Positions 15,745 through 37,835 of a DNA stretch of 37,835 nucleotides are shown piece after piece. Each line of letters starts with the position of its first letter. The stretch's first letter is position 1. The notes under the pieces are model-generated. The model had not been told where the DNA came from and did not search any database. It saw only the letters and a program-made list of their open reading frames with translations. The position numbers were made by a program, and so were the translations under genes. Source of the stretch: a virus; the IMG/VR virus record IMGVR_UViG_3300025529_000020, positions 1-37,835 of that record; one strand, 5' to 3'.

Positions 15745-15762
15745 TGGTCCGCTGATTGGTGC

Positions 15763-19539: not shown

Positions 19540-19580
19540 CCTATTGGGGTTACAGGTCCTGGTCTCCGGTAGCGCGCGGG
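19540..19580 (-). promoter_or_regulatory. Conserved motif site 2 (GTTACAGGTCC ... GCGCGC)
   Basis: GTTACAGGTCC at 19549-19559 and GCGCGC at 19572-19577, between sigma gene stop and next gene start. Confidence 0.5.
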
Positions 19581-19602
19581 AGAACCGGGAATTTGTGGGT
19601 GT

Positions 19603-20967: not shown

Positions 20968-21456
20968 CTAGTCCGTTTGTGGTCCGTCCGTTACTGTGGG
21001 GGATGGTGTGTTTGTGTCCGCAGAGAGCTGACGTAGGTATTGCGCGGCTCTCTCGAGACGTTCGGGATGGTCCCCCATGAGGCCGAGTGCGGCGTTGCAG
21101 GTGTGGCAGAGCAGCCCACGCACCCGGTGAGTCCGGTGGCAGTGGTCGACCACTAGCCTGCTCCCCGGGGGGTACGGGGGACGTGCACAGATCGCGCACC
21201 GCCACCGTTGTGCCCTAGCCATAGCGGTGTAGTCGGCACTCGTGATCCCGTATCTACGCCGCAGTTTGCGGTCACGTTCGACAGTGCGCTGTTTCCGGGT
21301 TCTGCGCTTGCGGTACGCAGACTCGCAGTCGCGGCAGCGCGTGCCACGGCGGTTCCCTCGAGTGCGGGGGAACCTTCCCAGTGGGAGCGTCTGTCCGCAC
21401 GTGCGACAGTCCCGCACATAGGGGTTCACGCCGTGTATTTCCGGTCGTCCGGACAT
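20968..21456 (-). CDS. Endonuclease VII-family (HNH-like) nuclease, probable Holliday junction resolvase
   Basis: Cys clusters CRTCG...CRDC and VVDHCH...GLLCHTCN motif. Confidence 0.65.
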   Translation of the reverse strand: MSGRPEIHGVNPYVRDCRTCGQTLPLGRFPRTRGNRRGTRCRDCESAYRKRRTRKQRTVERDRKLRRRYGITSADYTAMARAQRWRCAICARPPYPPGSRLVVDHCHRTHRVRGLLCHTCNAALGLMGDHPERLERAAQYLRQLSADTNTPSPTVTDGPQTD

Positions 21457-23306
21457 CCGTACCCATCTCCCCAGCTAGTGCCGTAGATTTCGGGTTCGGA
21501 TTCGATCTGAACCCCGAAAAACGGCATCCGCATCCTCTCCCCCACTGCGTTGATCACGTCCTGAGCCTCGTGGCGTGGGGCTTCAACCAGGATTTCGTCA
21601 TGGACCACACCGATGACATAGGGCAGTAGTCCATCAGCGTCCAGATCCACTAGCGCTTGCCCTAGGACATCGCGCGCGGTGGATTGGCACAGGTAGGCGA
21701 TCGCCGTGTACGTTTTGTCGCGGTCCAGGCGCAGCAGCCGACCGGACGGGGTACGCACGGTCATCCCTTGCTGCTGTGCCATACGGGTGAGGTAGCGGGA
21801 GAACCGTGCGATTTCCGGCAACGCGCGGTCGTACTTGGTCACCGCTGCCTGAACCTGCCGCAGTGGGAGTCCAGTTTGCCGCGCCAACGTACGCGCTCCA
21901 CCGGCGTAGGCCTTCCCCAACGAGATCGTCTTGCACAATGACCGCTGATCTTTGGGGACTGGCTCGTTCTCAGGGATGTTGAACACCAGCCTTGTGGTGT
22001 AGGAGTGCAGGTCCTGTCCTTGGTTGATCGCCTCGATGAGGCGTTCGGCTCCTGCCAGCGCTACGAGCACTCGCAGTTCTACCTGAGCTAGGTCACTTGC
22101 GGCGATGAGGTGTCCGGGCTCTGCCACGACACAGCGACGCACTCGCCAGTCCGATGACGGTAGCTGCTGCAGTGGCGGGTTGGACATCGACCACCGGCCG
22201 GTGCGAGCACCTAGCGTGTTGATGTCGGGGTGAATCCTGCCACTGGGGTCTACAAGCTGCAGCATGGCGTGACCGTAGCTGGCAGCCCATTTCTGCGCAC
22301 GCTTCGCGCGGAGAACAGCATCGGCAAGCGGGTTGGGTTCACGGGCTCCCACTCTCCGCCACTGTGTGTCCAGGTCCGCCATAGGCAGAAGCACTTCTTT
22401 ACCCACCGCCAACTGTCCCGTGGCGGTTGTCTCAGTCAGCGTTTCCCCCATGGCCTGCAGTGCAGCAGCCACTTGGGCAGTAGCGTGCACAGACGTCACC
22501 CCGTACCGCCTAGCCACCGCAGTGTAATGGGCAGCCTCGTTTTCCAGCTCATCCACCAGCGACTTTGTGTAGTTGAGGTCCAGCCGCATCCCCTTACGGC
22601 GGATAATGGTCCCAATACGGGCAATGCGGTGTTCGTACTCCGCCAATGTTGCCGGGATGGCAGCGTCCTCACACGCGCGAAGCAGGTGAGGCAGCAGCCG
22701 AGTTACCAACACCACGTCCGCACCTGCATACGTGAGGAACGCCGGAGTATCCAGCGGGAGTTGAGCCCAACCACTCTCCCGGGTGAGCCCATGCTCACGA
22801 AACACTGCAGCCAGTTCCCGCTGACCATCAGTAGCATGCGGATCCACATAGTGCGCTGCCAGGTTTTTGAGGGCATGCCCAGTGCCGCCCTCATACTCCC
22901 GACGAGGGTCATACAAGTGCGCGTAAATGCGGGTATCCCGGATACGCGGCCACAGTTCCTCTACCGGAATGCCCAGGTGGCGGTCTATGACCAGCGTGTC
23001 ATAGGACGCATTGTGGATGACCAGCTTCGGCAGCGTGCGGAGCGCGTATCGAGCAGCGTGAGCGAACACCTCCCCGTACTCAACTGGCAACAGCCACGCC
23101 TCTTCCGGAGTGCCGAACTGGATCAGACGTAGCCGGTGCGAGTGTAGGAACACGTTCAAGCCGGTGGTCTCGGTGTCGACTCCCACCGGTGTACCACGTT
23201 GGGTCATGCGGTCAACCCAGTCGCGAAACACGTGGATGTCATCAGGATGGTCGACCACATACTGTGTCCACCTGATGTTCCCCATACGTTCGTGTGTGAT
23301 GCGCAT
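21426..23306 (-). CDS. DNA polymerase I (family A) with 3'-5' exonuclease domain
   Basis: Exo motif VGVDTETTGL, polymerase motifs DLAQVELRVLVALAG, KTISLGKAYAGG, VHDEILVE; ATG at 23306 with AGGAGAGG RBS (ORF-track start lies inside the primase gene). Confidence 0.85.
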   Translation of the reverse strand: MRITHERMGNIRWTQYVVDHPDDIHVFRDWVDRMTQRGTPVGVDTETTGLNVFLHSHRLRLIQFGTPEEAWLLPVEYGEVFAHAARYALRTLPKLVIHNASYDTLVIDRHLGIPVEELWPRIRDTRIYAHLYDPRREYEGGTGHALKNLAAHYVDPHATDGQRELAAVFREHGLTRESGWAQLPLDTPAFLTYAGADVVLVTRLLPHLLRACEDAAIPATLAEYEHRIARIGTIIRRKGMRLDLNYTKSLVDELENEAAHYTAVARRYGVTSVHATAQVAAALQAMGETLTETTATGQLAVGKEVLLPMADLDTQWRRVGAREPNPLADAVLRAKRAQKWAASYGHAMLQLVDPSGRIHPDINTLGARTGRWSMSNPPLQQLPSSDWRVRRCVVAEPGHLIAASDLAQVELRVLVALAGAERLIEAINQGQDLHSYTTRLVFNIPENEPVPKDQRSLCKTISLGKAYAGGARTLARQTGLPLRQVQAAVTKYDRALPEIARFSRYLTRMAQQQGMTVRTPSGRLLRLDRDKTYTAIAYLCQSTARDVLGQALVDLDADGLLPYVIGVVHDEILVEAPRHEAQDVINAVGERMRMPFFGVQIESEPEIYGTSWGDGYGCPDDRKYTA

Positions 23307-23367
23307 GCCTCTCCTAACGGACAAAGCGGCCCCCACGCAGTGAGCGCAGGGGCCGTACCCAGTGTAC

Positions 23368-25830
23368 CTAGCGTACCTGACCGAACACGTCACGGTTCCC
23401 ACTCTGCGGGGATGGGTGATCCGCCGCAGTGGGGGAGTTCGCGACCAGCCGCACTCCGATGAGTGTCTGACCACGCTTGGTTTTGACGCGGTCAATACCG
23501 CGTTCCTCTAGGGCCCTGTAGAACGTTTGTCGTTTCCACCGTTCCCGCGGAGGCAGGTTTTCCGCCTCACACCAGTCCATGTAGGCGTTGAACGCGGCGT
23601 TACCCAAAACGCGGTCCTCAGGGTTGCCGGTCTTCTCGAGAACGCCGGGTAGAAAACCCGACAGGGCATCCGAGATCTCTCGGTACTCCCTGGTCGCTTT
23701 ACGCACCACTCCCGGATCCTGCAGACCATTCCGGTACCACTCCACAGCCCCGCGGACTGCCCAAGCCAGAATACCTTCGGCTTCCGCACGGAGCTTATCG
23801 GTCAGCTCATAGTCGCGTTCGTGTGGCTCAAACTTCCTCCTAAACGGGATCATCTTCACCCGACGCCACAAACCATCGTCCTGACCACGGAACAGGGGCT
23901 TGTGGTTAGTGTCCATCAACAGCAGGAACGTGGGCACGAACTCGAAGAACTCCTGCCGCAGGAAGCGGGCCACCAGCACGTTTCCACCGGTGGCTTGCTT
24001 GAGCACTCCTTCCGCCATGGGCTTGTCACGGTCGCCTTCAGAAGCCCGGACAATTCGAGCGCCGCGTAGGGCAGCCAAGTCGTTGGGGATACCCCCCGAG
24101 CGCTCCTCGAAAGTACTGAACGGTGTAGTGCGGGAAATAGCAGAAAACACAGACGTGATCGTGTCCATGAACACGCTTTTCCCGTTCGCACCTTTACCCC
24201 ACAGCACAGCGAAGCATTGTTCGGCGGTGCTCCCTGTGATCCCGTACCCGATGAGCCGCTGCATGTACGCGGGCAATTCCGGGTTGTACGGGAAAATCTC
24301 CTCCAAGAATTTTTCCCAGCGCGGGCACTTGGCGTCCGGCCGGTAGTCCACGTCCACGTAGCGGGTGATCATGTCCTCACGGCGGTGGGGACGCAGCATT
24401 CCCGTACGCAGATCGATGGTGCCGTTTCGGACAGCCAACAGGTCCGCACGTGCGTCGAAATCGCTAGCGCGGACGCGCACACCAGGGACGCTTTGCAACT
24501 CGCGAATGATGTGGTCAATACTCCTGGTCATGAGGAAGCTTCGAGCTTCCTTGGCCTTCCCTACAAGAGCGAGTGCCGCACCAATGCGGTAAACCTCCTG
24601 TCGCACATGGGACTCGGACGGTACCCAGCAGCGTCCATCCCACACGAAAAAGCCCAGCCCAGGCGCGTAGCGGATACGGTTGTCCGCGAACGCCACCAGT
24701 ACGTGAGCCCGCATAACGTCCGTATCCGACTCTGAGAACCGGTCGTGGTACGCACGGTACAACTCGGCGGCGCGTTCCCCATCCTCACGAGTGACCGCAT
24801 CCAGCCCGGTGCGGCTCAGCGCTTCCTTAGCGTCGATGCGCCGTTCCTCGTCCGGAGTGCGGACAGGGCGGGCGGCGCGTACCGCTTCGTGGAGTTTCCC
24901 CGCGAACCCTGCAGGGTCGCGTTCCCGCCAGTCGGTGAGGTCGTCTCCGGCGTTGGGGATGACCAGGTGCCGAACCTCAACCCCGTGGTTACGGAGCGCG
25001 GTGGAGATAGTCTGAGTGAACCGCTGCCCCGCCTCGTCCGCGTCCCCCGCTACCACGACGAGGGAGTCCTTCAGCGCTTCCGCCAGTTCACGTGCGAGTG
25101 CCTCACTCGACATCGCTGCACCGCGGACCGCCACAGCGTCATAACCTGCAGCGACCGCGGTGAGCGCGTCCCCAGGCCCTTCCGTGATGACCACTACGCC
25201 GTAGGATCCGCCGCCGCGCAAAAATCCGTATCGTTGCCACACCTTCCCCTGGGGGTTGCTCAGGCTCACCCACCGGGCTTGACACTTCCCAGTCAGGTCC
25301 CTGCCCTGCAGGCCGCGCACAGTACCGTGGCGGTCGTAGAGAGGGACCACCAGTCGCGGAAACGCGCGGTACGTGCGGGACAGATACGGCAACGTGAACA
25401 CGTCACCGCCCGGGTCAACGCCCACACCGAGATCCGCGGCCTGGTCAACGGTCAACCCGAACCGCCGCTCCACATACTCGGCGGCTAGACGGGCATCGTC
25501 GGTGTACTGTTCCCGAAGCCGCTTGGACGTAGCGTCCACGTATGCGGCGACCGCGGCGATCTCTGCAGGGCCCACCTGGTCAGGCTGGGTGGTGATGAGC
25601 TGTTCCGGTGCGGTCCACTGAAACAGGTCGCGTTCCTGCATGCCGAGTCGTTTCAGAACGTCCTTGGTCTCGCATCCAGCGCGGCAAGTCATCAGCAGCC
25701 TTCCTTCGTTAGTCACCGCCAGCGCGAGTGACGGCCGCTGGTCATCATGTGCAGGACAGTGCACCACCATGTTGCGGCCCTCGTTGACAACGTGCGGAAA
25801 ACGCTCCAGGAACTTGTTGAAGTCGCGCAT
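23368..25830 (-). CDS. Bifunctional primase / D5-like helicase (zinc-binding, Toprim, P-loop NTPase)
   Basis: HCPAHDD...CRAGC zinc motif, Toprim-like ITEGPGDALT, Walker A GKGANGKS; ATG at 25830 with GAGGGGAAG RBS. Confidence 0.75.
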   Translation of the reverse strand: MRDFNKFLERFPHVVNEGRNMVVHCPAHDDQRPSLALAVTNEGRLLMTCRAGCETKDVLKRLGMQERDLFQWTAPEQLITTQPDQVGPAEIAAVAAYVDATSKRLREQYTDDARLAAEYVERRFGLTVDQAADLGVGVDPGGDVFTLPYLSRTYRAFPRLVVPLYDRHGTVRGLQGRDLTGKCQARWVSLSNPQGKVWQRYGFLRGGGSYGVVVITEGPGDALTAVAAGYDAVAVRGAAMSSEALARELAEALKDSLVVVAGDADEAGQRFTQTISTALRNHGVEVRHLVIPNAGDDLTDWRERDPAGFAGKLHEAVRAARPVRTPDEERRIDAKEALSRTGLDAVTREDGERAAELYRAYHDRFSESDTDVMRAHVLVAFADNRIRYAPGLGFFVWDGRCWVPSESHVRQEVYRIGAALALVGKAKEARSFLMTRSIDHIIRELQSVPGVRVRASDFDARADLLAVRNGTIDLRTGMLRPHRREDMITRYVDVDYRPDAKCPRWEKFLEEIFPYNPELPAYMQRLIGYGITGSTAEQCFAVLWGKGANGKSVFMDTITSVFSAISRTTPFSTFEERSGGIPNDLAALRGARIVRASEGDRDKPMAEGVLKQATGGNVLVARFLRQEFFEFVPTFLLLMDTNHKPLFRGQDDGLWRRVKMIPFRRKFEPHERDYELTDKLRAEAEGILAWAVRGAVEWYRNGLQDPGVVRKATREYREISDALSGFLPGVLEKTGNPEDRVLGNAAFNAYMDWCEAENLPPRERWKRQTFYRALEERGIDRVKTKRGQTLIGVRLVANSPTAADHPSPQSGNRDVFGQVR

Positions 25831-25889
25831 ACTTCCCCTCGCAGTGTGCTTACCTGAGAAACCGGTTCCGCGCTTGCGGTGTAACGGGC

Positions 25890-26267
25890 TTATTGCCGGA
25901 GCTCTTTGACCACGCGCACGAACGTCGCACCGGACATGACCACCAAGCACTCGTGGGGACCGCGACCACGAACTTTCACCGCGGCCACACCGAAAGGCAG
26001 TCCAGCGTTCCGCGCTTCCTGTTCGGCTTGGCGAACGTACGCGGGCAGCTCGTGACGTGCCGTGTTTTTACACTCCACGACAAACGGGACTACCCACAGA
26101 TCCCCTACGTCGTGTATCCCCTGCTGTGCTTGGCGACGTGCGTTCAGTGGGGATGTGGGATCTAGGAACTCGTCTCCATCAGGGGTCACGAGCCCCAGTT
26201 CTCGGTTGAGGTAGCGTGCGAACTCGGTTTCCCACCGAGTCCCACGTCTTTTATTCGGGTTAGCCAC
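25890..26267 (-). CDS. PD-(D/E)xK family nuclease, possible Holliday junction resolvase (VRR-NUC-like)
   Basis: E...D(VGD)...ExK (VVECK) arrangement in a 125-aa protein next to replication genes. Confidence 0.45.
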   Translation of the reverse strand: MANPNKRRGTRWETEFARYLNRELGLVTPDGDEFLDPTSPLNARRQAQQGIHDVGDLWVVPFVVECKNTARHELPAYVRQAEQEARNAGLPFGVAAVKVRGRGPHECLVVMSGATFVRVVKELRQ

Positions 26268-28786: not shown

Positions 28787-29614
28787 CTAGGTTCGCCGCT
28801 GTGTGCCAGTCAACAACTGTCCGCCAGTCGCCAACGGGGATCCCAACACTGCCCGTGCCTCCTCACGCTGCCACGTGAGTGCCTCACGGAGCGCCAGAAA
28901 CACCTGATGCATTTCTGCATCCACTCGGACCGGTACCAGTGACCACCGCTCCGGGGTCACGTGGAGCACTGCGCCGCCATCCACACGCGGCATGTCCCGG
29001 GAAGTACCGTCTACGCCGATCAGGCGATCTGCGTACGCGTACGCGGACAACTGCAACGCAACAGTGGGATACACGTCACGGGACGTTTTCCAGTCCACGA
29101 TGATCAGATGCGGAGTCCCTGATCTGTCCGGGGTGGGGGTACGGTCCGGAGCCAGCCAGACACGCAGCAGAGCATCAAAGCTGCCTGCGTACCGAAACCT
29201 GTCCGACCACACCACCTCCTCAGCTGCCACGAGCTCAGGACGTACCGTGTCCAGAAACTCCGCAAAATGATTGCGGTACGGGACGAGGTCGTGCTCCACG
29301 TAACGCGGAGACTCCCCCCTGAGCATGCGCTCAAACAGATCGTGAGCTTTGCTGCCCAGCTCAGCTCGTGCTTGCGTATACCGCCGTGGCGCGGCCTTGA
29401 GCAGGTCTATCGCGGCGGTGGGGTCTGTCTGGACCAGGCCTTGTACCGTATTCCAGTTCTCCACCGCGTACGTTGCCACAGTTTTCGCGGCCCACGGTGG
29501 TAAGAAAGGCTTGTCCAGGACGCTGATGATAGAGGTTACCCCAGGCACTTTGGTGCCAGTGTCGGGGTCCACATACCAGCGCGCTCCCCCACGGGTGAGG
29601 GTTCGGATGGTCAT
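28787..29614 (-). CDS. PD-(D/E)xK (RecB/Cas4-like) exonuclease
   Basis: Motifs D...LIIVDWKTSR and QLSAYAYA (QxxxY); ATG at 29614 with AAAGGAGC RBS. Confidence 0.6.
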   Translation of the reverse strand: MTIRTLTRGGARWYVDPDTGTKVPGVTSIISVLDKPFLPPWAAKTVATYAVENWNTVQGLVQTDPTAAIDLLKAAPRRYTQARAELGSKAHDLFERMLRGESPRYVEHDLVPYRNHFAEFLDTVRPELVAAEEVVWSDRFRYAGSFDALLRVWLAPDRTPTPDRSGTPHLIIVDWKTSRDVYPTVALQLSAYAYADRLIGVDGTSRDMPRVDGGAVLHVTPERWSLVPVRVDAEMHQVFLALREALTWQREEARAVLGSPLATGGQLLTGTQRRT

Positions 29615-29635
29615 ATGTCGCTCCTTTCGCTGTAT

Positions 29636-29672
29636 TCCTAGTTACAGGTCCGCAGCGTGGGGAGCGCGCGTA
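29636..29672 (-). promoter_or_regulatory. Conserved motif site 3 (GTTACAGGTCC ... GGGGAGCGCGCG) with adjacent A5T5 tract
   Basis: First copy of a tandemly duplicated ~117-bp promoter-like unit upstream of the exonuclease gene. Confidence 0.5.
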
Positions 29673-29752
29673 CCGTGGCAGAAAAATTTTTGGTCGACGT
29701 GCTCCGCACCTGGTGAGGGTTCGGATCGCCACGTCGCCCCTTCCGGATCTGT

Positions 29753-29790
29753 CTCTAGTTACAGGTCCGCGGCGGTGGGAGCGCGCGGGT
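29753..29790 (-). promoter_or_regulatory. Conserved motif site 4 (tandem duplicate of site 3)
   Basis: Second copy: GTTACAGGTCC at 29758-29768, GCGCGC at 29781-29786, A4T4 tract at 29798-29808. Confidence 0.5.
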
Positions 29791-29883
29791 CGCGGCAGAA
29801 AATTTTCTGACCGACGTAGCTGCAGCGGGATGGGCACGGAGAGTGAGGGCATGCCCTACGCGGAGTAGAGGAGATGGGGGAGT

Positions 29884-29977
29884 GGTGACGAGTGACGATT
29901 TAGACCTTGTTTTTGTAGTGCTATAGGAGAACCCATAGAACAATGCAAAAACAGGGTCTACATCGTCACTCGTCACC
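29884..29977. repeat. AT-rich island B, bounded by perfect 16-bp inverted repeats GGTGACGAGTGACGAT / ATCGTCACTCGTCACC
   Basis: Perfect 16-bp inverted arms, inner inverted repeat AGACCTTGTTTTTG/CAAAAACAGGGTCT, AT-rich centre. Confidence 0.7.
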
Positions 29978-30048
29978 CCTGGACGAAGAAACCCCGCCAT
30001 CCGTGTCCGGACAGCGGGGCTTCTACGTCGTGTTACTACACCGCGTCG

Positions 30049-30732
30049 CTACCCCAGCGCGGAGCGCAGTACGGCCACGCTTTCTTCAAGCGACACTATC
30101 GCGGCCTGGATCGTTTCCCGCGGCTTACCGGTCAGCGCCACGGTGGCAGACACCGCATCCCTTGCCGCGGTCACGTTCCGTACGTCCTCAGCCAGCTGGC
30201 TCACCGCGCGCACCACATCCTCCGGTGGGCTGTCGGGGTGTACTGTGATGGCCTCTAGTCGACGTAGCGCAGTTTCCGCGCGCTGCCGCTGGCGCTCTCG
30301 GCGTTCCGCCTGCCGTTCTTTCGGCGGTGTCGGGGTGATGCCGTAGTGCGCCAGCGCTTCCGGCGTGTACAGTCCGTTAGCGCGCATGTAGTCGATCCGC
30401 AGCGCTGCCACGTGGTATCTGATCAGCGACTGTAGAGACGCTTCGGAGTCGCTGGGGATGCCGGCTTTCTCATACAGCTGCTGGACTGCTTCCCGGTATC
30501 CCGGGGACGTGCCGCACAGATCTGGCCAACCATCCTTATCCCGGTAGCGTGCCCGCAGATGCAGCACTACCAGCGCTAGGTTGCGTGCTGTTTGTGTCGC
30601 ACGGCCCTGCAGTCTCACATAGTCGCGCACCAGTTTTGCGCCACGGTCGATGAGCTCGTGTACAGGTGCGTCATCCTGGAACACCGTGGCCTCGTCATCT
30701 CGCGGTGGAGTTACCAGCTGTAGTTGTGTCAT
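30049..30732 (-). CDS. Hypothetical protein (227 aa)
   Basis: ATG at 30732; Arg/Glu-rich helical segment ERQAERRERQRQRAE. Confidence 0.45.
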   Translation of the reverse strand: MTQLQLVTPPRDDEATVFQDDAPVHELIDRGAKLVRDYVRLQGRATQTARNLALVVLHLRARYRDKDGWPDLCGTSPGYREAVQQLYEKAGIPSDSEASLQSLIRYHVAALRIDYMRANGLYTPEALAHYGITPTPPKERQAERRERQRQRAETALRRLEAITVHPDSPPEDVVRAVSQLAEDVRNVTAARDAVSATVALTGKPRETIQAAIVSLEESVAVLRSALG

Positions 30733-30760
30733 ACGTCTAGCATACCGGGTGGATACACAA

Positions 30761-30795
30761 GAAAGACCCCGTGACGAGATTCACGGGGTCTTTCG
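30761..30795. terminator. Terminator-like hairpin (GACCCCGTG...CACGGGGTC flanked by T-rich runs on both strands)
   Basis: 9-bp GC stem with AAAG/CTTTCG flanks, just after the stop of the HExxH peptidase gene. Confidence 0.55.
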
Positions 30796-30804
30796 TCCGT
30801 GTTG

Positions 30805-31464
30805 TCATAGGTCGTCTGCGGAACGGTACAGCTCCCCACACTGCGTACATGCCACGGTCTGCGCGTTCAGCACAGTGCGGGACAGCCATAGTGGTCGTTC
30901 CGGAACACAGCGGCACACCGCCTTCGGGCGACGGTTGCTGCTGTGCGGGGTACGTTTCGTTCCGGTGTTCCGTTCCGCGTTCCGTTCCGGATCGGCGTTC
31001 TCCCACTCGCTGCGGCCCACTGCGGCTTCCGCCACGCACGCGGCCCACTCCCCGATCTCGGTGGGGAGCCTCATGTCCGCGTACCCCACATCTTGAGGGG
31101 GGTTGCCACCGCGCCACTCCAGTCCCATGTGTTCCGCTAGTGCGCGGAACCGCGAGTTATGATATCGGCCGCGCTTGGAGGTGTCCGCAACCCCGAGAGC
31201 GTGTGCAAGGGCATGTGCCGCTTCATGGGCAACTTGGCACACCACCTCACGAGGGGGGCGAGCTAGCGCATCGGGGAGTGTCTGCAGCACGTGTGTGTCG
31301 CCAAGAGAAGGCGTGAACCGCAACCACGCGTTCGTGCGTCCGATGGTGGGGACTACGTTCACGGTGACTGCGGGTAGTTGTGGTTCTCGTTCTCGCAGCA
31401 GGTCCCAGATGCGGCGTAGGGTGCGCGCGGTGACTTGCTCTGGGCTCATCTGTGTGGTTGACAT
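30805..31464 (-). CDS. HExxH zinc metallopeptidase (SprT-like or ImmA/IrrE-like) with C-terminal Cys-rich zinc ribbon
   Basis: VAHEAAHALAHALG (HExxH) and C-terminal CRCVPERP...CTQCGELY; ATG at 31464 with GGGGGA RBS (start uncertain, the ORF extends to 31524). Confidence 0.5.
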   Translation of the reverse strand: MSTTQMSPEQVTARTLRRIWDLLREREPQLPAVTVNVVPTIGRTNAWLRFTPSLGDTHVLQTLPDALARPPREVVCQVAHEAAHALAHALGVADTSKRGRYHNSRFRALAEHMGLEWRGGNPPQDVGYADMRLPTEIGEWAACVAEAAVGRSEWENADPERNAERNTGTKRTPHSSNRRPKAVCRCVPERPLWLSRTVLNAQTVACTQCGELYRSADDL

Positions 31465-31561: not shown

Positions 31562-32401
31562 TTACGCCGGAACTGTCGTGGCCAGTTTCCGTCGCGCGTC
31601 GCGTAGCACGTTCCTTCCCCAGCGGTCCGTGCGTCCGTAGCGGGTCCCGATTTCCGCTCCGGTGAGCGTGGTTCCGTTCCGGAGCTGTTCCGCGACCCAT
31701 TCGACAGCGGAACGGCGTTCCGCGCTGTGCGGGGGTACCACGGACACCGGAACGGTCGTAGGGGCTCCCTCCTCCACTACCGGAACGCGGACATTCCGTT
31801 CCTCGTCCCGCTGTTGTTCCTCGTTCCGCTCTTCGTTCCGCGCTGTTCCGCTCTTCGTTCCGCTGCTGTTCCGTTCCTCGTTCCGTTCCTCGTCCCCCGG
31901 TTGTTCCGTGTTCCGTTCCTCGTCCCGTTCCCCATTCCGCTGTTGTTCCTCGTCCCGTTCCTCGTTCCGCTCTTCGTTCCGTTCCTCGTTCCGCTGCTGT
32001 TCCGCCCTGTTCCGTCTACCTGCAGCAAGGGCCACCGACGCAACGACCACTAGTCCATCTACAGACAGTGGCAGCAGGATGGCCACAAGCTCCGACTCCC
32101 CGTACTGGAGCAGGAGCCCGCGCATGTGACCGTAGGAGACCACGGCCGCGGCCAGCGCTACGAGGAAAGCTCCCACCCACTCAACTGCGGACAGCAGTCC
32201 ACGCGGACGCTGTCCACGAACCATCATCTCTGCGACCAACAGCAGCGCTACCGGTGCCCATGCCGCAAACAGCATGGCACCGATGTCTGTTCCGTCCGCG
32301 TTCCGTTCCGCGGCGTGTGCCACGTTCGCGGCGATGCTGGCTCCTGCGCCGAGTAGGAACGCTGTCCAGGGGATGGCGTTTGATCTCGGTTTTCCGCTCA
32401 C
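31562..32401 (-). CDS. Membrane protein with central EERN tandem-repeat low-complexity region (start uncertain)
   Basis: Three or more hydrophobic helices, then (EERN)n repeats, then Arg-rich C-terminus; first possible start after the upstream gene stop is GTG at 32401. Confidence 0.45.
   Translation of the reverse strand: MSGKPRSNAIPWTAFLLGAGASIAANVAHAAERNADGTDIGAMLFAAWAPVALLLVAEMMVRGQRPRGLLSAVEWVGAFLVALAAAVVSYGHMRGLLLQYGESELVAILLPLSVDGLVVVASVALAAGRRNRAEQQRNEERNEERNEERDEEQQRNGERDEERNTEQPGDEERNEERNSSGTKSGTARNEERNEEQQRDEERNVRVPVVEEGAPTTVPVSVVPPHSAERRSAVEWVAEQLRNGTTLTGAEIGTRYGRTDRWGRNVLRDARRKLATTVPA
31790..32015. repeat. Imperfect tandem array of GTTCC(G/T)-containing units (about 12-bp period) encoding EERN repeats
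   Basis: Plus strand reads TTCCGTTCCTCGTTCCGCT... repeatedly; translates as EERNEERNEERDEE on the minus strand. Confidence 0.8.
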
Positions 32402-32514
32402 TCGTGGGTTCTCCGTTCCGTTCCGCTGTTTCCGTTCCGGGGCTTCCGTTCCGCCAGCGGTCCGGGAATTCCGTTCCGCTGGCGTTCCTCTACTTCCGTT
32501 CCGCTGGTGTTCCT
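32402..32514. repeat. Iteron-like array: five direct copies of TTCCGTTCCGC(T/C)(G/A)G (minus-strand CCAGCGGAACGGAA) in intergenic DNA
   Basis: Copies at about 32414, 32431, 32445, 32470 and 32494 between the stop of gene 32515..32937 and the start of the membrane protein gene. Confidence 0.7.
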
Positions 32515-32937
32515 CTACTCCCGCTCCGCCACTCGGTGACCGTGTTCCGTGGCCTCCACGTAAACCGCTCCAGCCTTCCGAAACGCCCTCAGCATCCCCC
32601 GCTCCAAGAGCGCAGTGATATGGCGTGCGGTTACTCCTGCAGCGCGGCACGCACTCGGCGACATGTGCAGCGCTCCGTTCTTGATGATGGTGCGCAGTGC
32701 GTTCCGCTGCTTCGCCGAGAGTGTGCGCGCGTTGAGCCGTCGTCCGCGACGCACTGCTTCCGCGGCCTGTTCGGGGGTTGTATACCGGAACGATAGATAA
32801 CCCACCCCCAACAGGTAGGCCCTCCACGGCCGAGCGGGGTTGTCGCCACGCCAAGAGACCAGGCCGATGATCTCGGGGCCGTTCTCACTGAGAACCACGC
32901 GCTCTGGGCGGGACGGGCGGTTGTTCTGTGTGGTCAT
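32515..32937 (-). CDS. Hypothetical protein (140 aa), possibly DNA-binding
   Basis: ATG at 32937 with GGAGG RBS downstream of terminator H3; Arg/Lys-rich. Confidence 0.45.
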   Translation of the reverse strand: MTTQNNRPSRPERVVLSENGPEIIGLVSWRGDNPARPWRAYLLGVGYLSFRYTTPEQAAEAVRRGRRLNARTLSAKQRNALRTIIKNGALHMSPSACRAAGVTARHITALLERGMLRAFRKAGAVYVEATEHGHRVAERE

Positions 32938-33353: not shown

Positions 33354-33383
33354 AATATAGCAGACTTGCTCAGTACTGCGCAA
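33354..33383 (-). promoter_or_regulatory. Sigma-70-like promoter (TTGCGC - 18 nt - TATATT)
   Basis: Minus-strand TTGCGC AGTACTGAGCAAGTCTGC TATATT; spacer nearly identical to the promoter at 18496-18524. Confidence 0.6.
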
Positions 33384-33435: not shown

Positions 33436-33975
33436 CTATCCACCACGCAACAGCGCATCCACCGCCTCGTAGAGTTCCGGGATGTCTCCGGAGTTGGGCA
33501 GTACGGCGTCCGCGAGATCCGCGGGAATAGCGGTCTCGGACGGATGCGTGTTCGCAGGGCCCACACCAGGACGCTGTACCCACACGAGGGAGAACCCTCG
33601 ACTTCGCAGCGCAAGTGCTTCGTTGCGGTACCGCACATCGGTCACCACCACGGGACCGGACAGTGCATCCAGTCGGCGTAGCGCGTGCTCCACCCACACC
33701 GATTCGCCGAGTGAGTCCCGGACTCCCGCACCTAGGCCTTGGAGAAGTTCGCGCACTTCCGGGATCGTCCTCTTCACACGGTCCCAGCCGTACGCCTCGA
33801 CTGCGTCTCGCAGGCGTAGCCCATCCCTCGTGATGAGTGGGTTCGTACTCAGCAGCACACTTCGGACGGGATCCGCGAACGCTACACGCGTGTATCCGCG
33901 GCACGCTAGGTACTCGGCGATGGTGTCCTTGCCGCTGCCTGCATATCCGATGAGGCCGATTTTTGACCGGTTCAC
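33436..33975 (-). CDS. P-loop nucleotide kinase, dNMP kinase-like
   Basis: Walker A GLIGYAGSGKDT near the N-terminus (phage dNMP kinases carry SGKDT); GTG start with GGAGGTG RBS. Confidence 0.55.
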   Translation of the reverse strand: MNRSKIGLIGYAGSGKDTIAEYLACRGYTRVAFADPVRSVLLSTNPLITRDGLRLRDAVEAYGWDRVKRTIPEVRELLQGLGAGVRDSLGESVWVEHALRRLDALSGPVVVTDVRYRNEALALRSRGFSLVWVQRPGVGPANTHPSETAIPADLADAVLPNSGDIPELYEAVDALLRGG

Positions 33976-33989
33976 GTCACCTCCCCGGT

Positions 33990-34036
33990 GTAGGACCTAT
34001 AGGTGTTACAGGTCCCAGCACCGGGGAGTGCGCGTA
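33990..34036 (-). promoter_or_regulatory. Conserved motif site 5 (GTTACAGGTCC ... GGGGAGTGCGCG) with GGACCT...AGGTCC inverted repeat
   Basis: GTTACAGGTCC at 34005-34015; overlaps the stop codon of the upstream holin-like gene. Confidence 0.5.
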
Positions 34037-34266: not shown

Positions 34267-34551
34267 TCACTCACGGGTTGTTAGCGCATGCTCTGTGGCA
34301 TGCACTATCTGCCACTCCCGCACGGCAGCCACCTCACCGCGCAGGAGATGGACATCGTCCGCCACCGCATCCACTCGCGCGCGGAGCGCGGCGATGGCCT
34401 CACGGGTCGCTGTCCCTTCTCGGGTTGCAGTGCGGCCCGATTTGCGCGCAGTCATATACGCGGGACCTGCGGTGATCGCTGCCGCCAAGATGGCAGCGGT
34501 CCCGGCAATCAGCTCCGGTCCCATGCGGATCACGTCCCCCACACCTGGCAC
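34267..34551 (-). CDS. Lysis-associated membrane protein (holin-like, one transmembrane helix)
   Basis: 94 aa with N-terminal hydrophobic helix LIAGTAAILAAAITAGPAY; overlaps the endolysin 3' end. Confidence 0.45.
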   Translation of the reverse strand: MPGVGDVIRMGPELIAGTAAILAAAITAGPAYMTARKSGRTATREGTATREAIAALRARVDAVADDVHLLRGEVAAVREWQIVHATEHALTTRE

Positions 34552-35642
34552 GTGGTCTTAGCGCTGCGCAGCGGTACCGGAGCTGGGCCGTAGTGCACCA
34601 CGCGGACCCGTGCCACATGGCTCTTGGACAGCCGCTCGGCGATGGCGTAGGTCATGTGGTGGTCGCCCCCGCCGTGCCGAGTGGTGTGGATGGGACCAGC
34701 CATTGTTTGGGTCACGGACGTTGGCAGTCGAGCACTCAGCGCGGCACGAGTCTGTGGCCCATACACCCCGTCCGCGTCGATCCCCAGAGCGTGCTGACAG
34801 GCCACCAGACCGGCCGTGGTGTTCGCACCCCACACACCGTCCGCACCATCAGGACCGACCGAAAACCCGAGTGCGATCAGCGCTTCCTGAATTTGGCGCA
34901 CCGCTGGTCCCGTCGCGCCTTGGCGGTACACACCGGTAGGGAGCACGTAGCTGTCTCTGCGGTAATGACTGACCCGCATTTGCACCTCACAGCCCTCGGG
35001 CAGCGCTTTACCGTCCAGAACCACGCCGGCCGAGAGCATGTAATGTGCCGGGCCCTTTACCACGTCGCGGAAGGTGCCAGTTTTGCCGGACGTTCGGGTA
35101 AACGGAATGGTCGTCCATTTCCCGGGCTCAAGGATCAGTTCCTCATTCCGCGTAAACCATACAAACTCGGGCATGTCATCCCCCACATTGCTGTACACCG
35201 GCCGAACATATCCATACGCCGCGGACGCGGAACGGGTCTTTTTATATACCCCGTCGCCATTCCAATAATTGCCACCCCACGAGCCGGACGTGTTGCCGCC
35301 AATCGTGGTCACCGTGTCCCCGTTGACGGCCACTACGATTTCGACGTGCGTCCCGCCATTAGGGCCGTACATAGCCAAATCGCCCACCTGGGGAGTGGAG
35401 TGGAAACGTCCACGGCTACGCCCCCATGCCACTTGTTGCAGGCATGATGCAGTAAGGGGGAAGTCCTTGTCCGGCCTCCCGCCTGCCTGCAGAAACACCC
35501 AACAGGTGAATGTCGCGCACCATGGTTGACCCTGGGACCATTCGAGCCCGGGAACCGCAGGGGAGTACTTCTGGATGTTGTTCCCGGTTTCGCGGTACCC
35601 CAACTCGCCGTGCGCGATTTCGATCACACGCTTAACGTCCAT
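34530..35642 (-). CDS. Endolysin: N-terminal CHAP-type cysteine peptidase with C-terminal peptidoglycan-binding domain
   Basis: Cys region QPWCATFTCWVF, GDLAMYGPNGGTHVEIVVA (Cys/His pattern), C-terminal PG-binding repeat GPAVRQIQEALIALGF...GVYGPQTRAAL. Confidence 0.65.
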   Translation of the reverse strand: MDVKRVIEIAHGELGYRETGNNIQKYSPAVPGLEWSQGQPWCATFTCWVFLQAGGRPDKDFPLTASCLQQVAWGRSRGRFHSTPQVGDLAMYGPNGGTHVEIVVAVNGDTVTTIGGNTSGSWGGNYWNGDGVYKKTRSASAAYGYVRPVYSNVGDDMPEFVWFTRNEELILEPGKWTTIPFTRTSGKTGTFRDVVKGPAHYMLSAGVVLDGKALPEGCEVQMRVSHYRRDSYVLPTGVYRQGATGPAVRQIQEALIALGFSVGPDGADGVWGANTTAGLVACQHALGIDADGVYGPQTRAALSARLPTSVTQTMAGPIHTTRHGGGDHHMTYAIAERLSKSHVARVRVVHYGPAPVPLRSAKTTCQVWGT

Positions 35643-35981: not shown

Positions 35982-37835
35982 CTATAGTCCGACAATCGCT
36001 CCGCGGAACAGTCGAATCTCCGTTCCCGCCGTATGGGGTTTGTGGATCCCGTTGGTAGCGCGCTGCACAGTGAACGTCTGCGTGGTGCCTGTTCCGGAGA
36101 TCGAGGCCACGCGTACAAGCTCCCCACCAACGAACATGTCCACAGGAAACGCCTGCGGCTCTTCTTCCGTGGTCACCCAGCGCGGTCCCCGAGTGGTGCG
36201 CACCGTGAACGTGGTTTGGACGCTGTCAACGTCCTCGTCCAGCTCCGCACCGGCAGTGTCAGCGCGGCACTGATCCTGCGGACCCACGTCCCCATCCGGA
36301 TCCGCGATCACCCCAATGAGCAGCGGTCCACCGGACGAGGCATTGAACGTCACCTCCCACGTGTGCGGGCCTAGACGCTCCTCATAGCCCTCGATCTGCA
36401 GTTCGATGGGCTCTGGTGGTAGCCACGGCGGTGGGTTGATGATCTGCAGGGCATCCCCCGAGTCGCGCACAGCCACGATGTCGACGAGGCCAGGGTTGCG
36501 TGCCAGGTTGATCGTGACCGTGGGGTACCGGGCATCGTCCCACGTGCCCAGGTGCAGCCGCCAATGCGCTAGGTCCCACAATTGACGTTCGTGGGCTGCA
36601 TGTAACGTCTCGGACTGCTCGTAGCGTCCCACGCCCAGTGGAGGCGGCTGCACTGATAGTGCGCCTTCCTCCAGCACCGCGCGGTACTCCGTACCCCGTG
36701 GCATGCTCACGGTCACATCATTAGCTAGCCGCTGGTCATCCTCGATAGGCTCCCACGGCTCGCTGATGTGTCCCGCACTGTAGTCCAGCACCACGGACAC
36801 CGCGGTATCGGTACGCGCTCGGCCACGGAACACCAGTCCCCCACGTGCCGCACACGTGCCGTGTTTGCGTGCTGTGGCGAACTCCCCCACGGTCATGCCG
36901 CCGAGAGCACTCCCACGGCCGTGGTGGAGCACATCAACGTGGTGGGATCCCACATGCATCCCGCCGAGCGCATCCGTGACCGCGGTGCGAGAACCCGCAA
37001 CTGCAGCACCGTCCACCGTGAAACGGCTCACGGCCGCACCCTGCGGTACCGCGTACCCTGATGCATGACCACCAAAGCTCAGGCCACCGGACGCTGTCGC
37101 GCCAGCTCGACGAGCCTCAGCGTGACCGCCCATGGTCAGCCAGTGCATCGCCCACGTCCAGCGTGGCGGTGGTGCGGGGCCGAGTGGACCGTCATCGGCG
37201 ACAGCTACGTGGGACACCCACAGTGAGGGTGGGTAGCCCTGGCCGCGGTGAAGACGTAGCGCAAGGTCGATTGCCGCCAACGTTTCAGGACCGACAACAC
37301 CATCGACTGGTAGCCCGTAGTCAGCCTGAAACGCTTGGACCGCTGTGACCGTTTCCCCACCATAGTCGCCATCCGCACCGTACAGCGGCAGCGGATACCC
37401 CAGCTCGAGCAGGGCTTCCTGCATGGCGGTGATTTCCGTATCCCCACGCGAAGCATCCGACTGGCCAGGGAGCAAGATGATACCGCGGCGGTAGCGGTAC
37501 CCGGTCAGCACCAGCTGGCCATGGAACGTGTACCCATTCCAACGGTGGATCCGTGTACGGTCACCAGCGGGGTTTGTCACCCGAGACTCGAAGAAGGCAC
37601 TTCCATCAGTATGGAATTCGACCAACCACCACTGGCCGATGGGGACCGCGTTACCTGTCTCTTCTGTCCAGTTGATAGCTGTTGCGGCCAGATCGTCAGG
37701 CTGGAGCCGAGTCCCGATGTTGCCGGACGCGGTCTCGTGAACCACCCATCCCAGCCCCGCAGTCGGGAAATGCGCGACCCAGCGCACCTCGTTGATCCCG
37801 TGTCCCGCTGCCTGCAGTCCCGGTGCCCACATGTA
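35982..37835 (-). CDS. Tail protein with peptidoglycan-binding domain (3' portion; N-terminus wraps to 385-1)
   Basis: 616-aa ORF reaching the window edge; PG-binding-like segment ITAMQEALLELGYPLPLYGADGDYGGETVTAVQAFQADYGLPVDGVVGPETLAAI; in frame with the upstream ATG at 385. Confidence 0.6.
   Translation of the reverse strand, partial: YMWAPGLQAAGHGINEVRWVAHFPTAGLGWVVHETASGNIGTRLQPDDLAATAINWTEETGNAVPIGQWWLVEFHTDGSAFFESRVTNPAGDRTRIHRWNGYTFHGQLVLTGYRYRRGIILLPGQSDASRGDTEITAMQEALLELGYPLPLYGADGDYGGETVTAVQAFQADYGLPVDGVVGPETLAAIDLALRLHRGQGYPPSLWVSHVAVADDGPLGPAPPPRWTWAMHWLTMGGHAEARRAGATASGGLSFGGHASGYAVPQGAAVSRFTVDGAAVAGSRTAVTDALGGMHVGSHHVDVLHHGRGSALGGMTVGEFATARKHGTCAARGGLVFRGRARTDTAVSVVLDYSAGHISEPWEPIEDDQRLANDVTVSMPRGTEYRAVLEEGALSVQPPPLGVGRYEQSETLHAAHERQLWDLAHWRLHLGTWDDARYPTVTINLARNPGLVDIVAVRDSGDALQIINPPPWLPPEPIELQIEGYEERLGPHTWEVTFNASSGGPLLIGVIADPDGDVGPQDQCRADTAGAELDEDVDSVQTTFTVRTTRGPRWVTTEEEPQAFPVDMFVGGELVRVASISGTGTTQTFTVQRATNGIHKPHTAGTEIRLFRGAIVGL
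37709..37835. repeat. Terminal direct repeat: exact duplicate of 1-127
   Basis: Identical to window start; an ORF reads through the junction in frame. Confidence 0.9.

Follow-up and report, generated by a model that had tools for sequence, protein, structure and literature searches.

Five copies of a conserved intergenic element as candidate phage-specific promoters in a distant relative of phage phiC31

Introduction

Five copies of one asymmetric 11-mer lie between the genes of the phage genome analysed here, and the question raised by these loci is what reads them. The analysed stretch of 37,835 nucleotides (IMG/VR record IMGVR_UViG_3300025529_000020, hereafter the window) contains the whole genome of a phage, ~37.7 kb in length. 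Its layout is temperate, with a serine integrase and a repressor-like gene, and its large ORFs, assigned or without assignment, include primase, polymerase, integrase, terminase, endolysin, and an ORF with endolysin-like and phosphodiesterase-like matches. The phage is a distant relative of phiC31: the primases are ~52% identical and the gene order is common to both, a tie that was reached via the primase only. Searches of cultured phages with the DNA and with the sigma protein returned no match, and a tRNA search of the window found none. A first-pass annotation of the window had proposed that the 11-mer copies form a dedicated middle/late promoter class for a sigma factor encoded by the phage itself. 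We examined this proposal together with its main alternatives.

Results

Copy number and placement of the 11-mer

The sequence GTTACAGGTCC occurs, just as annotated, in five exact copies (13888, 19549, 29641, 29758, and 34005); all are on the plus strand, and their number is far above chance. The coding strand is the minus strand, and in transcript orientation the element reads GGACCTGTAAC (Table 1). When one mismatch was allowed, 0.67 occurrences were expected and none of 100 shuffled sequences reached five; allowing two mismatches added merely chance-level extra matches (15 versus 9.5 expected). A PWM scan gave only the same five sites, which scored 19.9–21.6 with no other site above 11.2. 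All copies are intergenic, as had been stated, and all are co-oriented with the genes. Because only ~7.8% of the genome is non-coding, the chance of a fully intergenic set is ~3e-6; treating the paralogous pair as a single copy raises it to ~4e-5. The copies head four transcription units. The distance to the start codon, first given as 26–34 nt, is roughly right for S1, S4, S3, and S2 (29, 25, 26, and 34 nt, respectively) and wrong for S5 (187 nt).

Scanning the whole collection for GGACCTGTAAYNNNNNTAGG gave matches in at least 120 stretches but was uninformative: two known relatives were among them, and the remainder were single chance hits or, in low-GC viruses, collagen-like Gly-X-Y repeats matched in antisense.

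Table 1. Coordinates of the candidate promoters and neighbouring features in the window
Feature	Position	Strand	Description
Promoter-like S1	34005–34033	-	GCGCAC (34033–34028), 12 nt, GGACCTGTAAC (34015–34005)
Promoter-like S4, distal duplicate	29758–29786	-	GCGCGC (29786–29781), 12 nt, GGACCTGTAAC (29768–29758)
Promoter-like S3, proximal duplicate	29641–29669	-	GCGCGC (29669–29664), 12 nt, GGACCTGTAAC (29651–29641)
Promoter-like S2, directly after sigma gene	19549–19577	-	GCGCGC (19577–19572), 12 nt, GGACCTGTAAC (19559–19549)
Promoter-like S5, ahead of late operon (HNH, terminase)	13888–13908	-	GGACCTGTAAC (13898–13888), GCGCGC (13908–13903), 4-nt gap
Tandem duplication, ~117-bp period	29580–29830	-	units ~80% identical, from alignment
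Palindrome region A (~100 bp), upstream of S4/S3	29881–29980	.	outer arms GGTGACGAGTGACGAT / ATCGTCACTCGTCACC
Palindrome region B (~100 bp), paralogous to A, directly upstream of S5	13921–14012	.	outer arms as in A
Separate promoter class, 18-bp palindrome TTGCGCAGTACTGAGCAA	33366–33383	-	-35 hexamer and spacer of host-type promoter, TATATT as -10
Hairpin potential overlapping S2	19558–19589	-	fold z -1.4
Stable hairpin after S5, then GTTTTG	13837–13879	-	-45 kcal/mol over a 101-nt stretch, z -2.2
Phage sigma-70-family gene, 317 aa	19603–20556	-	last gene of replication block

Bipartite architecture of the element

A second element, GCGC[G/A]C, lies exactly 12 nt upstream of the 11-mer in four of the five copies (P ~7e-11), which places it 17 nt from the hexamer TGTAAC; at S1 this partner reads GCGCAC. 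At S5, GCGCGC lies at 4 nt and none is found at the 12-nt offset. The -35/-10-like spacing of ~17 nt that had been annotated is confirmed for four copies and absent at S5. The annotated gap of 4–14 nt does not stand as a range: it is 4 nt at S5 and 12 nt at each of the others. A purine follows TGTAAC by 7–8 nt in all five copies. Further upstream, between ~20 and 47 nt from the 11-mer (positions -65 to -38 from the predicted start), the A+T content is 48–56%, compared with 38% for the genome.

In 8 relatives whose sigma proteins are 70–94% identical to that of the window, the site directly after the sigma gene retains CGCGC, GGACyTGTAAy, and TAGG, the last invariant at the predicted start position, while the spacer, leader, and flanks vary. 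Among relatives the spacing shifts by one nucleotide, a variation also seen in sigma-70-family promoters. A -10 element of the sigma-70 family usually needs A at position 2 and T at position 6; TGTAAC has neither, which counts against the promoter reading. Nor do TGTAAC and GCGCGC fit the host housekeeping class (TTGACA-N16-18-TATAAT; actinobacterial TAnnnT). As an ECF-sigma promoter (GGAAC-N16-17-CGT/GTC) with GGACC as the -35 element, the motif was rejected: nothing is conserved 16–17 nt downstream, and the start would fall in the SD. A T7-like promoter, which the CACTATAG-like look of two copies might suggest, was likewise discarded since none of the large ORFs matches an RNAP family.

Units headed by the copies and the tandem duplication

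The annotated placement of the copies at the starts of the HNH/terminase, post-sigma, exonuclease, and dNMP kinase units is correct for these four units, with the qualification that the start following copy 29758 opens an out-of-frame remnant. S1 precedes the GTG (33975) of the dNMP kinase gene (33436–33975; Pfam DNMK match), and S2 precedes a conserved 67-aa ORF (19311–19514). S3 is followed by the ATG (29614) of the exonuclease gene. Its product has a weak PD-(D/E)XK match, and by synteny the gene corresponds to phiC31 gp1 and to the Cas4 exonuclease of Shawty. S4 is followed by a duplicated SD and a GTG (29732); this start belongs to a copied piece of gene that enters the exonuclease gene in another frame. 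Between S5 and the HNH ATG (13700) are a hairpin and GGATCCCC repeats.

S3 and S4 belong to a tandem duplication with a ~117-bp period that includes an A/T tract; alignment bore out the first-pass annotation on this point. Each unit contains the palindrome CAGAAAA(A)(T)TTTTCTG, GCGCGC, the motif, the SD, and the first 12–13 exonuclease codons, and the repeat pairs within it span 63 nt at 83% and 34 nt at 79%. Tandem Repeats Finder did not report the duplication. It is kept copy for copy in L001 and is common to the window and an 87–92% identical relative (L001/L007), so that it predates the split from that relative. We attach very little probability to the view that the repeats as a whole have no regulatory role and merely remain from recombination or duplication events where modules meet. 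Two of the five copies do stem from the 117-bp duplication, which also copied a gene 5′ end, but the other three have just the 11-mer and GCGCGC in common, not the flanks; moreover, the core is kept in relatives with diverged flanks, and the placement matches that of the phiC31 motif (described below).

Host-type promoters, palindromes, and the regulator-site alternative

Promoters of the TTGCGC...TATAGT type, which had also been annotated, are indeed present in the window, and the motif is unlike them. In two regions covering three of the five sites, a scan with the E. coli-type sigma-70 consensus predicted no promoter. Palindrome region A has an AT-rich core with the host-type hexamers TTGCAT-N17-TATAGC, and the core of region B contains TTATAT-N17-TATAGA. 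The 18-bp palindrome TTGCGCAGTACTGAGCAA is found a second time at 18507–18524, with a variant at 18078–18095. As these separate host-type promoters carry palindromic operators, the asymmetric 11-mer represents a different class of element. It was also rejected as a phiC31-type CIR operator, a palindrome of 17–18 bp, being asymmetric, and the CIR-type core CTCACGTGAG is not enriched in the window (24 occurrences versus 26 expected).

The element could instead be an asymmetric, orientation-dependent site for a phage regulator, either a stoperator-type repressor as in mycobacteriophage L5 or an activator, rather than a sigma site. Like L5 stoperators, the copies are asymmetric, oriented with transcription, and intergenic; the phage has a repressor-c-like gene (30049–30732; product of 227 aa); the palindromes with host-type promoters lie a short way upstream of three copies; and a weak motif-complementary partner downstream of each copy could be a degenerate second half-site. 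We nevertheless consider this unlikely on the following grounds: (i) the repressor of the homologous phiC31 system has palindromic sites (CCTACTCACGTGAGTAGG, 16 copies) distinct from the asymmetric phiC31 motif; (ii) the window has palindromic operator candidates of its own; (iii) the fixed 12-nt partner and the purine/TAGG 7–8 nt downstream suit promoter geometry better; and (iv) there are just five copies, all of which head units.

Hairpins and motif complementarity

Two hairpins adjoin the candidate promoters (Table 1). The left arm of the S2 hairpin lies after the sigma stop codon, GCGCGC is in the loop, and the right arm extends into GGAC. Across the 8 relatives, 93% of the cells are paired, with zero compensatory double changes and no covariation; this hairpin is possibly a terminator or stabiliser of the sigma transcript. 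The S5 hairpin begins ~10 nt past S5, near the predicted transcript 5′ end; its counterpart in L007 has one compensatory change, a broken T-run (TTCT), and a 3-nt deletion before the stem. S5 has no -35-like element at the right spacing and a strong hairpin directly after it, and both features count against the promoter reading. In addition, a stretch complementary to the motif lies 4–17 nt downstream of each copy (P ~0.002–0.005), which a plain promoter model leaves unexplained. In phiC31, complementarity to its own motif is weakly enriched downstream, and the motif can pair with an SD.

These features raise the alternative that the motif acts at the level of RNA or elongation in read-through transcripts: RNA could be processed there, the motif could form a hairpin that covers or frees the RBS, or a sigma-dependent pause or antitermination loading could take place at it. 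Every copy is on the transcribed strand and within possible read-through from upstream units, and both the enriched complementarity and the compensatory change in the S5 hairpin are in line with such a role. Yet an Rfam search gave no match, the motif-pairing stems are just 4–6 bp with a register that differs among copies, the S2 hairpin lacks covariation, and the fixed-distance GCGCGC and modest upstream A+T enrichment are DNA-level promoter features. We regard an RNA-level role as improbable. A further reading involves the phage sigma factor itself. The 11-mer might do more than signal initiation: as an RNA polymerase arrives from upstream, a -10-like sequence would be read in its non-template strand, and the sigma factor would engage the elongating polymerase in a pause/loading step that alters hairpin handling or RBS exposure. 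The polymerase could come from the host-type promoters of palindromes A and B or from the preceding operon, the RBS could be exposed via the short stems that pair with the motif, and the whole would amount to antitermination in the manner of Q or put, with a phage sigma factor as its basis. We give this reading little credence.

The phage sigma gene and its relatives

The annotated sigma-70-family gene stood up to profile searches. Its product passes Pfam Sigma70_r2 (PF04542; 25.9 bits, cutoff 24), Sigma70_r4 (PF04545; 34.4 bits, cutoff 24.1), and NCBIfam TIGR02937 (64.3 versus a cutoff of 42.9), and a PDB profile search matched SigA region 4. The protein consists of sigma2, a helical middle domain, a linker, and sigma4. 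As in members of the family, region 2, which binds core and recognises the -10 element, and region 4, whose HTH serves the -35 element, are both present. A Foldseek search of the PDB with the predicted model returned sigma factors for all of the top 50 matches over ~300 columns, with TM-scores of 0.2–0.3 from a weak model (pLDDT 60, pTM 0.37). Relatives of the protein in viral contigs, in genomes sampled one per species, in JGI metagenomes, and in a set of 5.8 billion proteins were close relatives on short contigs only; one 1.3-kb contig sits in an Algoriphagus assembly, and none of these searches identified a prophage or a host.

BLASTP detected no similarity between the window sigma protein and phiC31 gp12, whereas alignment of the two families by hhalign gave a probability of 95.9% (E 6e-9, 218 columns). 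Annotated in RefSeq as “RNA polymerase sigma factor”, gp12 scores 26.7 for Pfam r2 (cutoff 24) and 48.1 for TIGR02937 (cutoff 42.9). The phiC31 genome has a motif of its own, GGGTTGCCGACTCCCTTAC, in 11 co-oriented intergenic copies, 10 of which end 20–48 nt upstream of start codons. Copies lie 35 nt upstream of the dNMP kinase gene gp52, 40 nt upstream of gp1 (the exonuclease counterpart), 32 nt upstream of gp13 and directly after gp12, and between int and the tRNA and late genes. Copy layout, syntenic positions, and an accompanying gp12-like sigma gene are all found in the window, as in a phiC31-type promoter set. The sequences themselves show, by eye, only a loose GAC...TwAC resemblance that falls short of the phiC31 consensus. 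Neither motif matches in the other genome, and phiC31 likewise lacks close variants of the window motif.

A sigma-like ORF lies downstream of the polymerase in 24 of the related primase-bearing loci. Lineage motifs were taken from exact 10-mer repeats; a motif finder based on k-mers with one mismatch gave output dominated by terminator hairpins and operator palindromes in these loci. Other lineages each have their own version of the motif together with a sigma-like gene, which is present in every lineage in which a motif was found. In a distant group of 57–68-kb genomes, whose sigma-like proteins are closest to the window sigma, the repeats are operator-like palindromes, and an asymmetric promoter motif was not found. 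The motif differs even among lineages that infect the same host genus (Streptomyces), which argues for a specificity factor encoded by the phage and not by the host.

This bears on whether the promoters are instead read by a host alternative sigma factor, or by host RNAP modified by a small phage protein, with the phage sigma factor serving another purpose. The promoter-like geometry is in line with such a reader, and the sigma gene itself belongs to an operon with the motif at its head, which a host factor would start more simply. Against this, a host sigma factor of fixed specificity would not predict the clear motif differences among Streptomyces phages, a sigma-like gene accompanies the motif throughout, and matches in viral contigs beyond the close relatives are of the chance or collagen-repeat kind noted above. 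We judge a host factor to be quite an unlikely reader.

Discussion

From their layout and conservation, we favour, with some reserve, the reading that the five GGACCTGTAAC elements are phage-specific promoters, most likely recognised by host core RNAP carrying the phage sigma factor. The dedicated promoter class proposed at first pass is supported in so far as the elements are bipartite, co-oriented, unlike the host-type promoters and operators, and matched by phiC31 counterparts; the timing term “middle/late” is a guess, and the sigma factor probably belongs to the motif, a link that we infer from synteny and lineage-specific motif drift. The link is correlative, as motif and sigma divergence both track the overall phylogeny. 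The abstract of PMC4331800 describes promoters of phage-encoded sigma factors as typically highly conserved and low in copy number, and the few, highly conserved copies in the window count for the phage-sigma reading by that signature.

In the proposed promoter, GCGC[G/A]C would be the -35-like element, followed by a 17-bp spacer whose invariant last five bases, GGACC, may act as an extended -10, and TGTAAC would be the -10-like hexamer. Transcription would start at the purine 7–8 nt downstream of TGTAAC and yield 5′ leaders of ~18–27 nt with an SD. Host-type, operator-flanked promoters may fire first, with TTGCAT-N17-TATAGC inside palindrome A as a candidate, and would transcribe the replication block, of which the sigma gene is the last. 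The sigma factor could then activate the tandem copies before the exonuclease gene, which would reinforce its own operon, as well as three further units: the genes after the sigma gene, the unit of the dNMP kinase gene, and the late operon with the HNH, terminase, and structural genes. Since the sigma gene is inside an operon headed by the motif, a bootstrap via the host-type promoters must be assumed.

If the pairing of sigma factor and motif is true, phiC31-like actinophages carry a sigma/promoter family whose specificity has been rewritten lineage by lineage, and the pair in the window (GCGCGC-N12-GGACCTGTAAC and a sigma factor that BLAST cannot link to gp12) is its most diverged example here. 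The pairing would also provide a testable candidate for the reader of the unusual conserved phiC31 promoters, offer natural, mutually orthogonal sigma/promoter sets for actinomycete genetics, and allow transcription units to be predicted from sequence alone in uncultured members of this phage group. The principle is not new: SPO1 and T4 were early cases of a phage sigma factor with promoters of its own.

Comparison with known systems

Among phage-sigma promoter systems, the window may be likened to those of the lytic phages phiEco32 (gp36) and 7-11 (PMC4331800, PMC12276001) and to SPO1 gp28 with gp33/34 (PMC13401047). In these phages, a sigma factor redirects host core RNAP to a few conserved promoters that the host holoenzyme does not use, and host-type promoters act first, as is proposed for the window. 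The phages, hosts, and sigma lineages are unrelated, and the window differs from these lytic systems in its temperate layout.

The stoperators of L5 and other cluster A phages are 13-bp asymmetric repressor sites (GGTGGMTGTCAAG) that number ~20–30 per genome and block elongation. They resemble the 11-mer in being asymmetric sites of ~11–13 bp, oriented with transcription, in short intergenic gaps. By contrast, the window has five copies, all heading units, and each has an upstream partner element, at a 12-nt offset in four of the five.

The closest counterpart is phiC31, whose motifs Ingham et al. reportedly described in 1993 as novel early promoters. The differences are considerable: GGGTTGCCGACTCCCTTAC is one contiguous block of ~19 bp as opposed to the bipartite GCGCGC-N12-GGACCTGTAAC, and the two are unrelated at face value; phiC31 has 11 copies versus five, and the window has none directly before the primase, polymerase, or sigma gene; and the repressor-like proteins have 683 and 227 aa, respectively. 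In both genomes, nevertheless, an asymmetric motif recurs between genes in several near-identical copies, all co-oriented, and four positions are common to the two: before the dNMP kinase gene, before the exonuclease gene, after the sigma-like gene, and after int and before the late genes. Both keep their palindromic operators separate from the motif, and in both the DNA polymerase gene is followed by a sigma-70-family gene; these two sigma genes are syntenic and remotely homologous. The arrangement in the window is most likely a diverged version of the phiC31 arrangement of promoters and sigma factor.

Genome and gene content

Bases 1–127 of the window recurred exactly at 37709–37835 in a repeat search; therefore, the window is a complete phage genome, circularly closed or terminally redundant, of about 37.7 kb (about 37,708 bp). 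The G+C content is 61.6%, and the minus strand carries essentially all genes, which were assigned through family searches (table below). No match was found among cultured phages at the DNA level. The primase is about 52% identical to the primases of phiC31, phiBT1, TG1, and other Lomovskayavirus phages. Phages phiC31 and Shawty have the same gene order as the window. By its sequence, this uncultured phage belongs to the phiC31-like group as a distant member.

An exact 31-nt direct repeat, whose copies are 61 nt apart and each hold an ATG and a CCCCAC/GTGGGG palindrome, spans the annotated start of the serine integrase. Dense GTTCCG/CGGAAC repeats with 6-, 12-, and 25-nt periods lie within a long ORF, the product of which has a weak excisionase-like (HTH) match.

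Features of the window (S1–S5, promoter-like copies of the 11-mer, in transcript orientation)
Feature	Position	Sequence	Distance to start codon (nt)
Endolysin	34530–35642		
S1 (dNMP kinase)	34005	ACGCGCAC-TCCCCGGTGCTG-GGACCTGTAAC	29
dNMP kinase	33436–33975		
18-bp palindrome (one variant)	33366–33383, 18507–18524, 18078–18095	TTGCGCAGTACTGAGCAA	
Repeat-rich ORF region	31562–32937		
Short protein related to phiC31 repressor c	30049–30732		
About 100-bp palindromes (outer arms)	29881–29980, 13921–14012	GGTGACGAGTGACGAT / ATCGTCACTCGTCACC	
S4 (exonuclease)	29758	CCGCGCGC-TCCCACCGCCGC-GGACCTGTAAC	25
S3 (exonuclease)	29641	ACGCGCGC-TCCCCACGCTGC-GGACCTGTAAC	26
PD-(D/E)XK exonuclease	28787–29614		
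Primase	23368–25950		
DNA polymerase	21426–23495		
Endonuclease VII			
Sigma-70-family protein	19603–20556		
S2 (post-sigma)	19549	CCGCGCGC-TACCGGAGACCA-GGACCTGTAAC	34
31-nt direct repeat (gene orientation)	15762–15792, 15823–15853	CCTGCTCCCCACGCATGTGGGGATGGTCCCG	
Large serine integrase	14031–15839		
S5 (late operon)	13888	GGAGAGCGCGCACCG-GGACCTGTAAC	187
Hairpin after S5	13837–13879		
Repeats before HNH gene	about 13730–13790	3x GGATCCCC, 1x GATCCCCC	
HNH endonuclease, small and large terminase			

Five promoter-like elements

The 11-mer, which contains the −10-like TGTAAC preceded by GGACC, occurs exactly 5 times in the window and in a single orientation (0.67 matches expected at one mismatch), as the first-pass annotation had counted; looser searches and a weight-matrix scan of the window gave no further credible sites. 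All 5 copies are indeed intergenic, in a genome with a noncoding share of 7.8%. The GCGCGC element had been placed within a range of 4–14 nt from the 11-mer; the range gives way to an exact 12-nt offset of GCGC[G/A]C upstream of the 11-mer in 4 of the 5 copies (P about 7e-11), that is, 17 nt from GCGC[G/A]C to TGTAAC. In S5, GCGCGC is 8 nt nearer, and a −35-like element is absent at the right spacing; this copy may need an extra factor or work differently. The proposed start-codon distance of 26–34 nt likewise describes S1–S4, approximately in the case of S4, and not S5. Apart from these two details, the first-pass description holds. A purine lies 7–8 nt past the TGTAAC hexamer at 5/5 copies. 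Between about 20 and 47 nt before the 11-mer, which corresponds to −65 to −38 as counted from the predicted start, the A+T content is 48–56%, compared with 38% for the genome. No E. coli-type promoter was predicted in the 2 regions scanned, which take in S3, S4, and S5.

The tandem duplication at S3/S4 proved real by repeat search and alignment. Each unit comprises an A/T palindrome, GCGCGC, the motif, a Shine–Dalgarno (SD) sequence, and 12–13 exonuclease codons, and the distal copy opens an out-of-frame remnant only. S2 is overlapped by a hairpin 3′ of the sigma stop codon.

A viral contig 87–92% identical to the window keeps 5/5 copies, both duplicated units included, and short metagenomic contigs supplied 7 more versions of the post-sigma spacer, with encoded sigmas 70–83% identical to that of the window. 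The 8-sequence alignment of this spacer kept CGCGC, GGAC[C/T]TGTAA[C/T], TAGG 6–7 nt further on, and the SD sequence, the remainder being variable; GCGCGC and GGACC are 11 or 12 nt apart. If TGTAAC is placed at −12 to −7, position +1 falls within the conserved TAGG. In its predicted geometry the element matches a sigma-70-family promoter; its sequence is unusual.

A 1.3-kb contig (JAFIDK010000045.1), with a sigma 83% identical to that of the window, comes from an assembly of Algoriphagus aestuarii (Bacteroidota); it is probably a contaminant and no pointer to the host. The sequence GGACCTGTAA, present dozens of times in L083, L084, L121, and other low-GC viral contigs, was rejected as a relative of the window element: in those contigs it lies antisense to coding repeats of the collagen-like Gly-X-Y type.

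A strong hairpin follows S5, where the late transcript is predicted to begin. The 87–92% identical relative has one compensatory change in this hairpin and 3 nt deleted before the stem; since it does not keep the T-run, a terminator and a stem that stabilises the 5′ end are equally likely. The compensatory change would also suit an 11-mer acting at the RNA or elongation level, as would a 4–6-nt stretch complementary to part of the motif 4–17 nt downstream of each copy (summed complementarity 24 versus 17.2 ± 1.8, P about 0.002–0.005, 2 copies being paralogues) and a weak version of this effect in phiC31, motif/SD pairing included (P = 0.04); we consider such a role very unlikely. The repeats between the hairpin and the HNH start codon are candidates for cos-proximal repeats or for binding sites of the small terminase.

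Host-type promoters and candidate palindromic operators

The separate TTGCGC...TATAGT-type promoters of the first-pass annotation were recovered as a second class (TTGCGC-N17/18-TATATT, TATAGT, or TAATGT; n = 3), each directly 3′ of an intrinsic terminator. The 18-bp palindromes, which overlie the −35 hexamer and spacer of these promoters, are a candidate operator set; they differ from the phiC31 CIR core, for which the window shows no enrichment. Two paralogous palindromes of about 100 bp, whose AT-rich cores have host-type hexamers on both strands, form the largest inverted repeats in the genome. One is situated upstream of S4/S3, and its paralogue immediately precedes S5. Operator-flanked divergent promoters are one possible role for them, replication/packaging elements another. 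With their own promoter class and palindromes, the host-type, operator-like elements are therefore separate from the asymmetric 11-mer. The 11-mer might instead be an asymmetric, stoperator-like regulator site; this is unlikely, since a promoter fits the geometry better and palindromic operators are separate in both the window and phiC31.

Comparison with phiC31

The comparison with phiC31 is the strongest evidence for the promoter reading. phiC31 has 2 repeat families: the palindrome CCTACTCACGTGAGTAGG (16 copies), which we take to be the CIR operators of the repressor, and an asymmetric motif, cc-GGGTTGCCGACTCCCTTAC. Scanning phiC31 with a weight matrix of the latter gave 11 strong intergenic copies, 11/11 on the coding strand and none on the opposite strand; in 10/11 the motif ends 20–48 nt upstream of a start codon. 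These copies include those (i) before gp52 (dNMP kinase), (ii) before gp1 (exonuclease), (iii) before gp13, directly after gp12, and (iv) after int, ahead of the tRNA/late genes, which are the same 4 genome positions as those of the window motif.

The phiC31 protein gp12 (29958–31148) is encoded after the DNA polymerase, as is the window sigma, and passes Pfam Sigma70_r2 and NCBIfam TIGR02937. BLASTP revealed no similarity between gp12 and the window sigma; profile–profile comparison aligned them from region 2 to region 4 (95.9%, E 6e-9, 218 columns). The annotation of gp12 is inconsistent: "RNA polymerase sigma factor" in RefSeq, "gp12" in GenBank, and "DNA binding protein" for the Shawty homologue (gene 34; SEA-PHAGES annotators).

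The motif and gp12 arrangement of phiC31 is the nearest relative of the window element, with position, orientation, synteny, and a homologous sigma in common. By contrast, the consensus is different, and the window element is bipartite whereas that of phiC31 is one contiguous block; by sequence, the window element does not fall within the phiC31 type.

Motif versions in other lineages

Of the related primase-bearing loci, 24 were found to have a sigma-like ORF downstream of the polymerase, and several lineages have their own motif version (GGTCACCGACTCCCTTC, AGGTAACCGACTCGCTAG, GGTAACCGACyCsCT, AGGCGTTCGAACCGCTCA, and AGAGTyyvACTCGTAAGCAC). The drift of the motif among phages of one host genus, together with the constant sigma-like gene, points to a phage-encoded reader, with motif/sigma co-variation not separable from general divergence. 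The same lineage-specific drift disfavours promoters read by a host alternative sigma, which we hold to be quite unlikely.

In the most distant group, only palindromic repeats were found. These 57–68-kb viral contigs (L025, L027–L031, and L033; primase about 45% identical) carry 20–22-bp palindromes (CTCCGTGAGTCGACTCACGGAG or CGCGTAAAACGACTCACGCG, for example) immediately 3′ of stop codons; several are 25–35 nt upstream of start codons, and single half-sites adjoin the SD sequence. Their host-type promoters are overlapped by the TGTGTCGGCCGACACA palindrome.

Proposed regulation and known systems

With modest confidence, we favour the 5 elements as candidate phage-specific promoters read by the phage sigma, and support comes mainly from comparative evidence that the first-pass annotation did not have. 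Its dedicated promoter class is reasonable; its "middle/late" label is not established. First transcripts would come from the host-type, operator-flanked promoters and run as far as the sigma gene, which closes the replication block. The sigma would then drive the 2 tandem copies before the exonuclease gene, the post-sigma genes, the dNMP kinase unit, and the late operon. Temporal switches are usually built in this way, with host-type and phage-type promoters in tandem before one set of genes.

The motif and sigma arrangement of the window introduces no new principle. Promoters of phage-encoded sigma factors are reported to be well conserved and few in number (PMC4331800), and the window element would work like the dedicated promoters of the sigma factors of phiEco32, 7-11, and SPO1.
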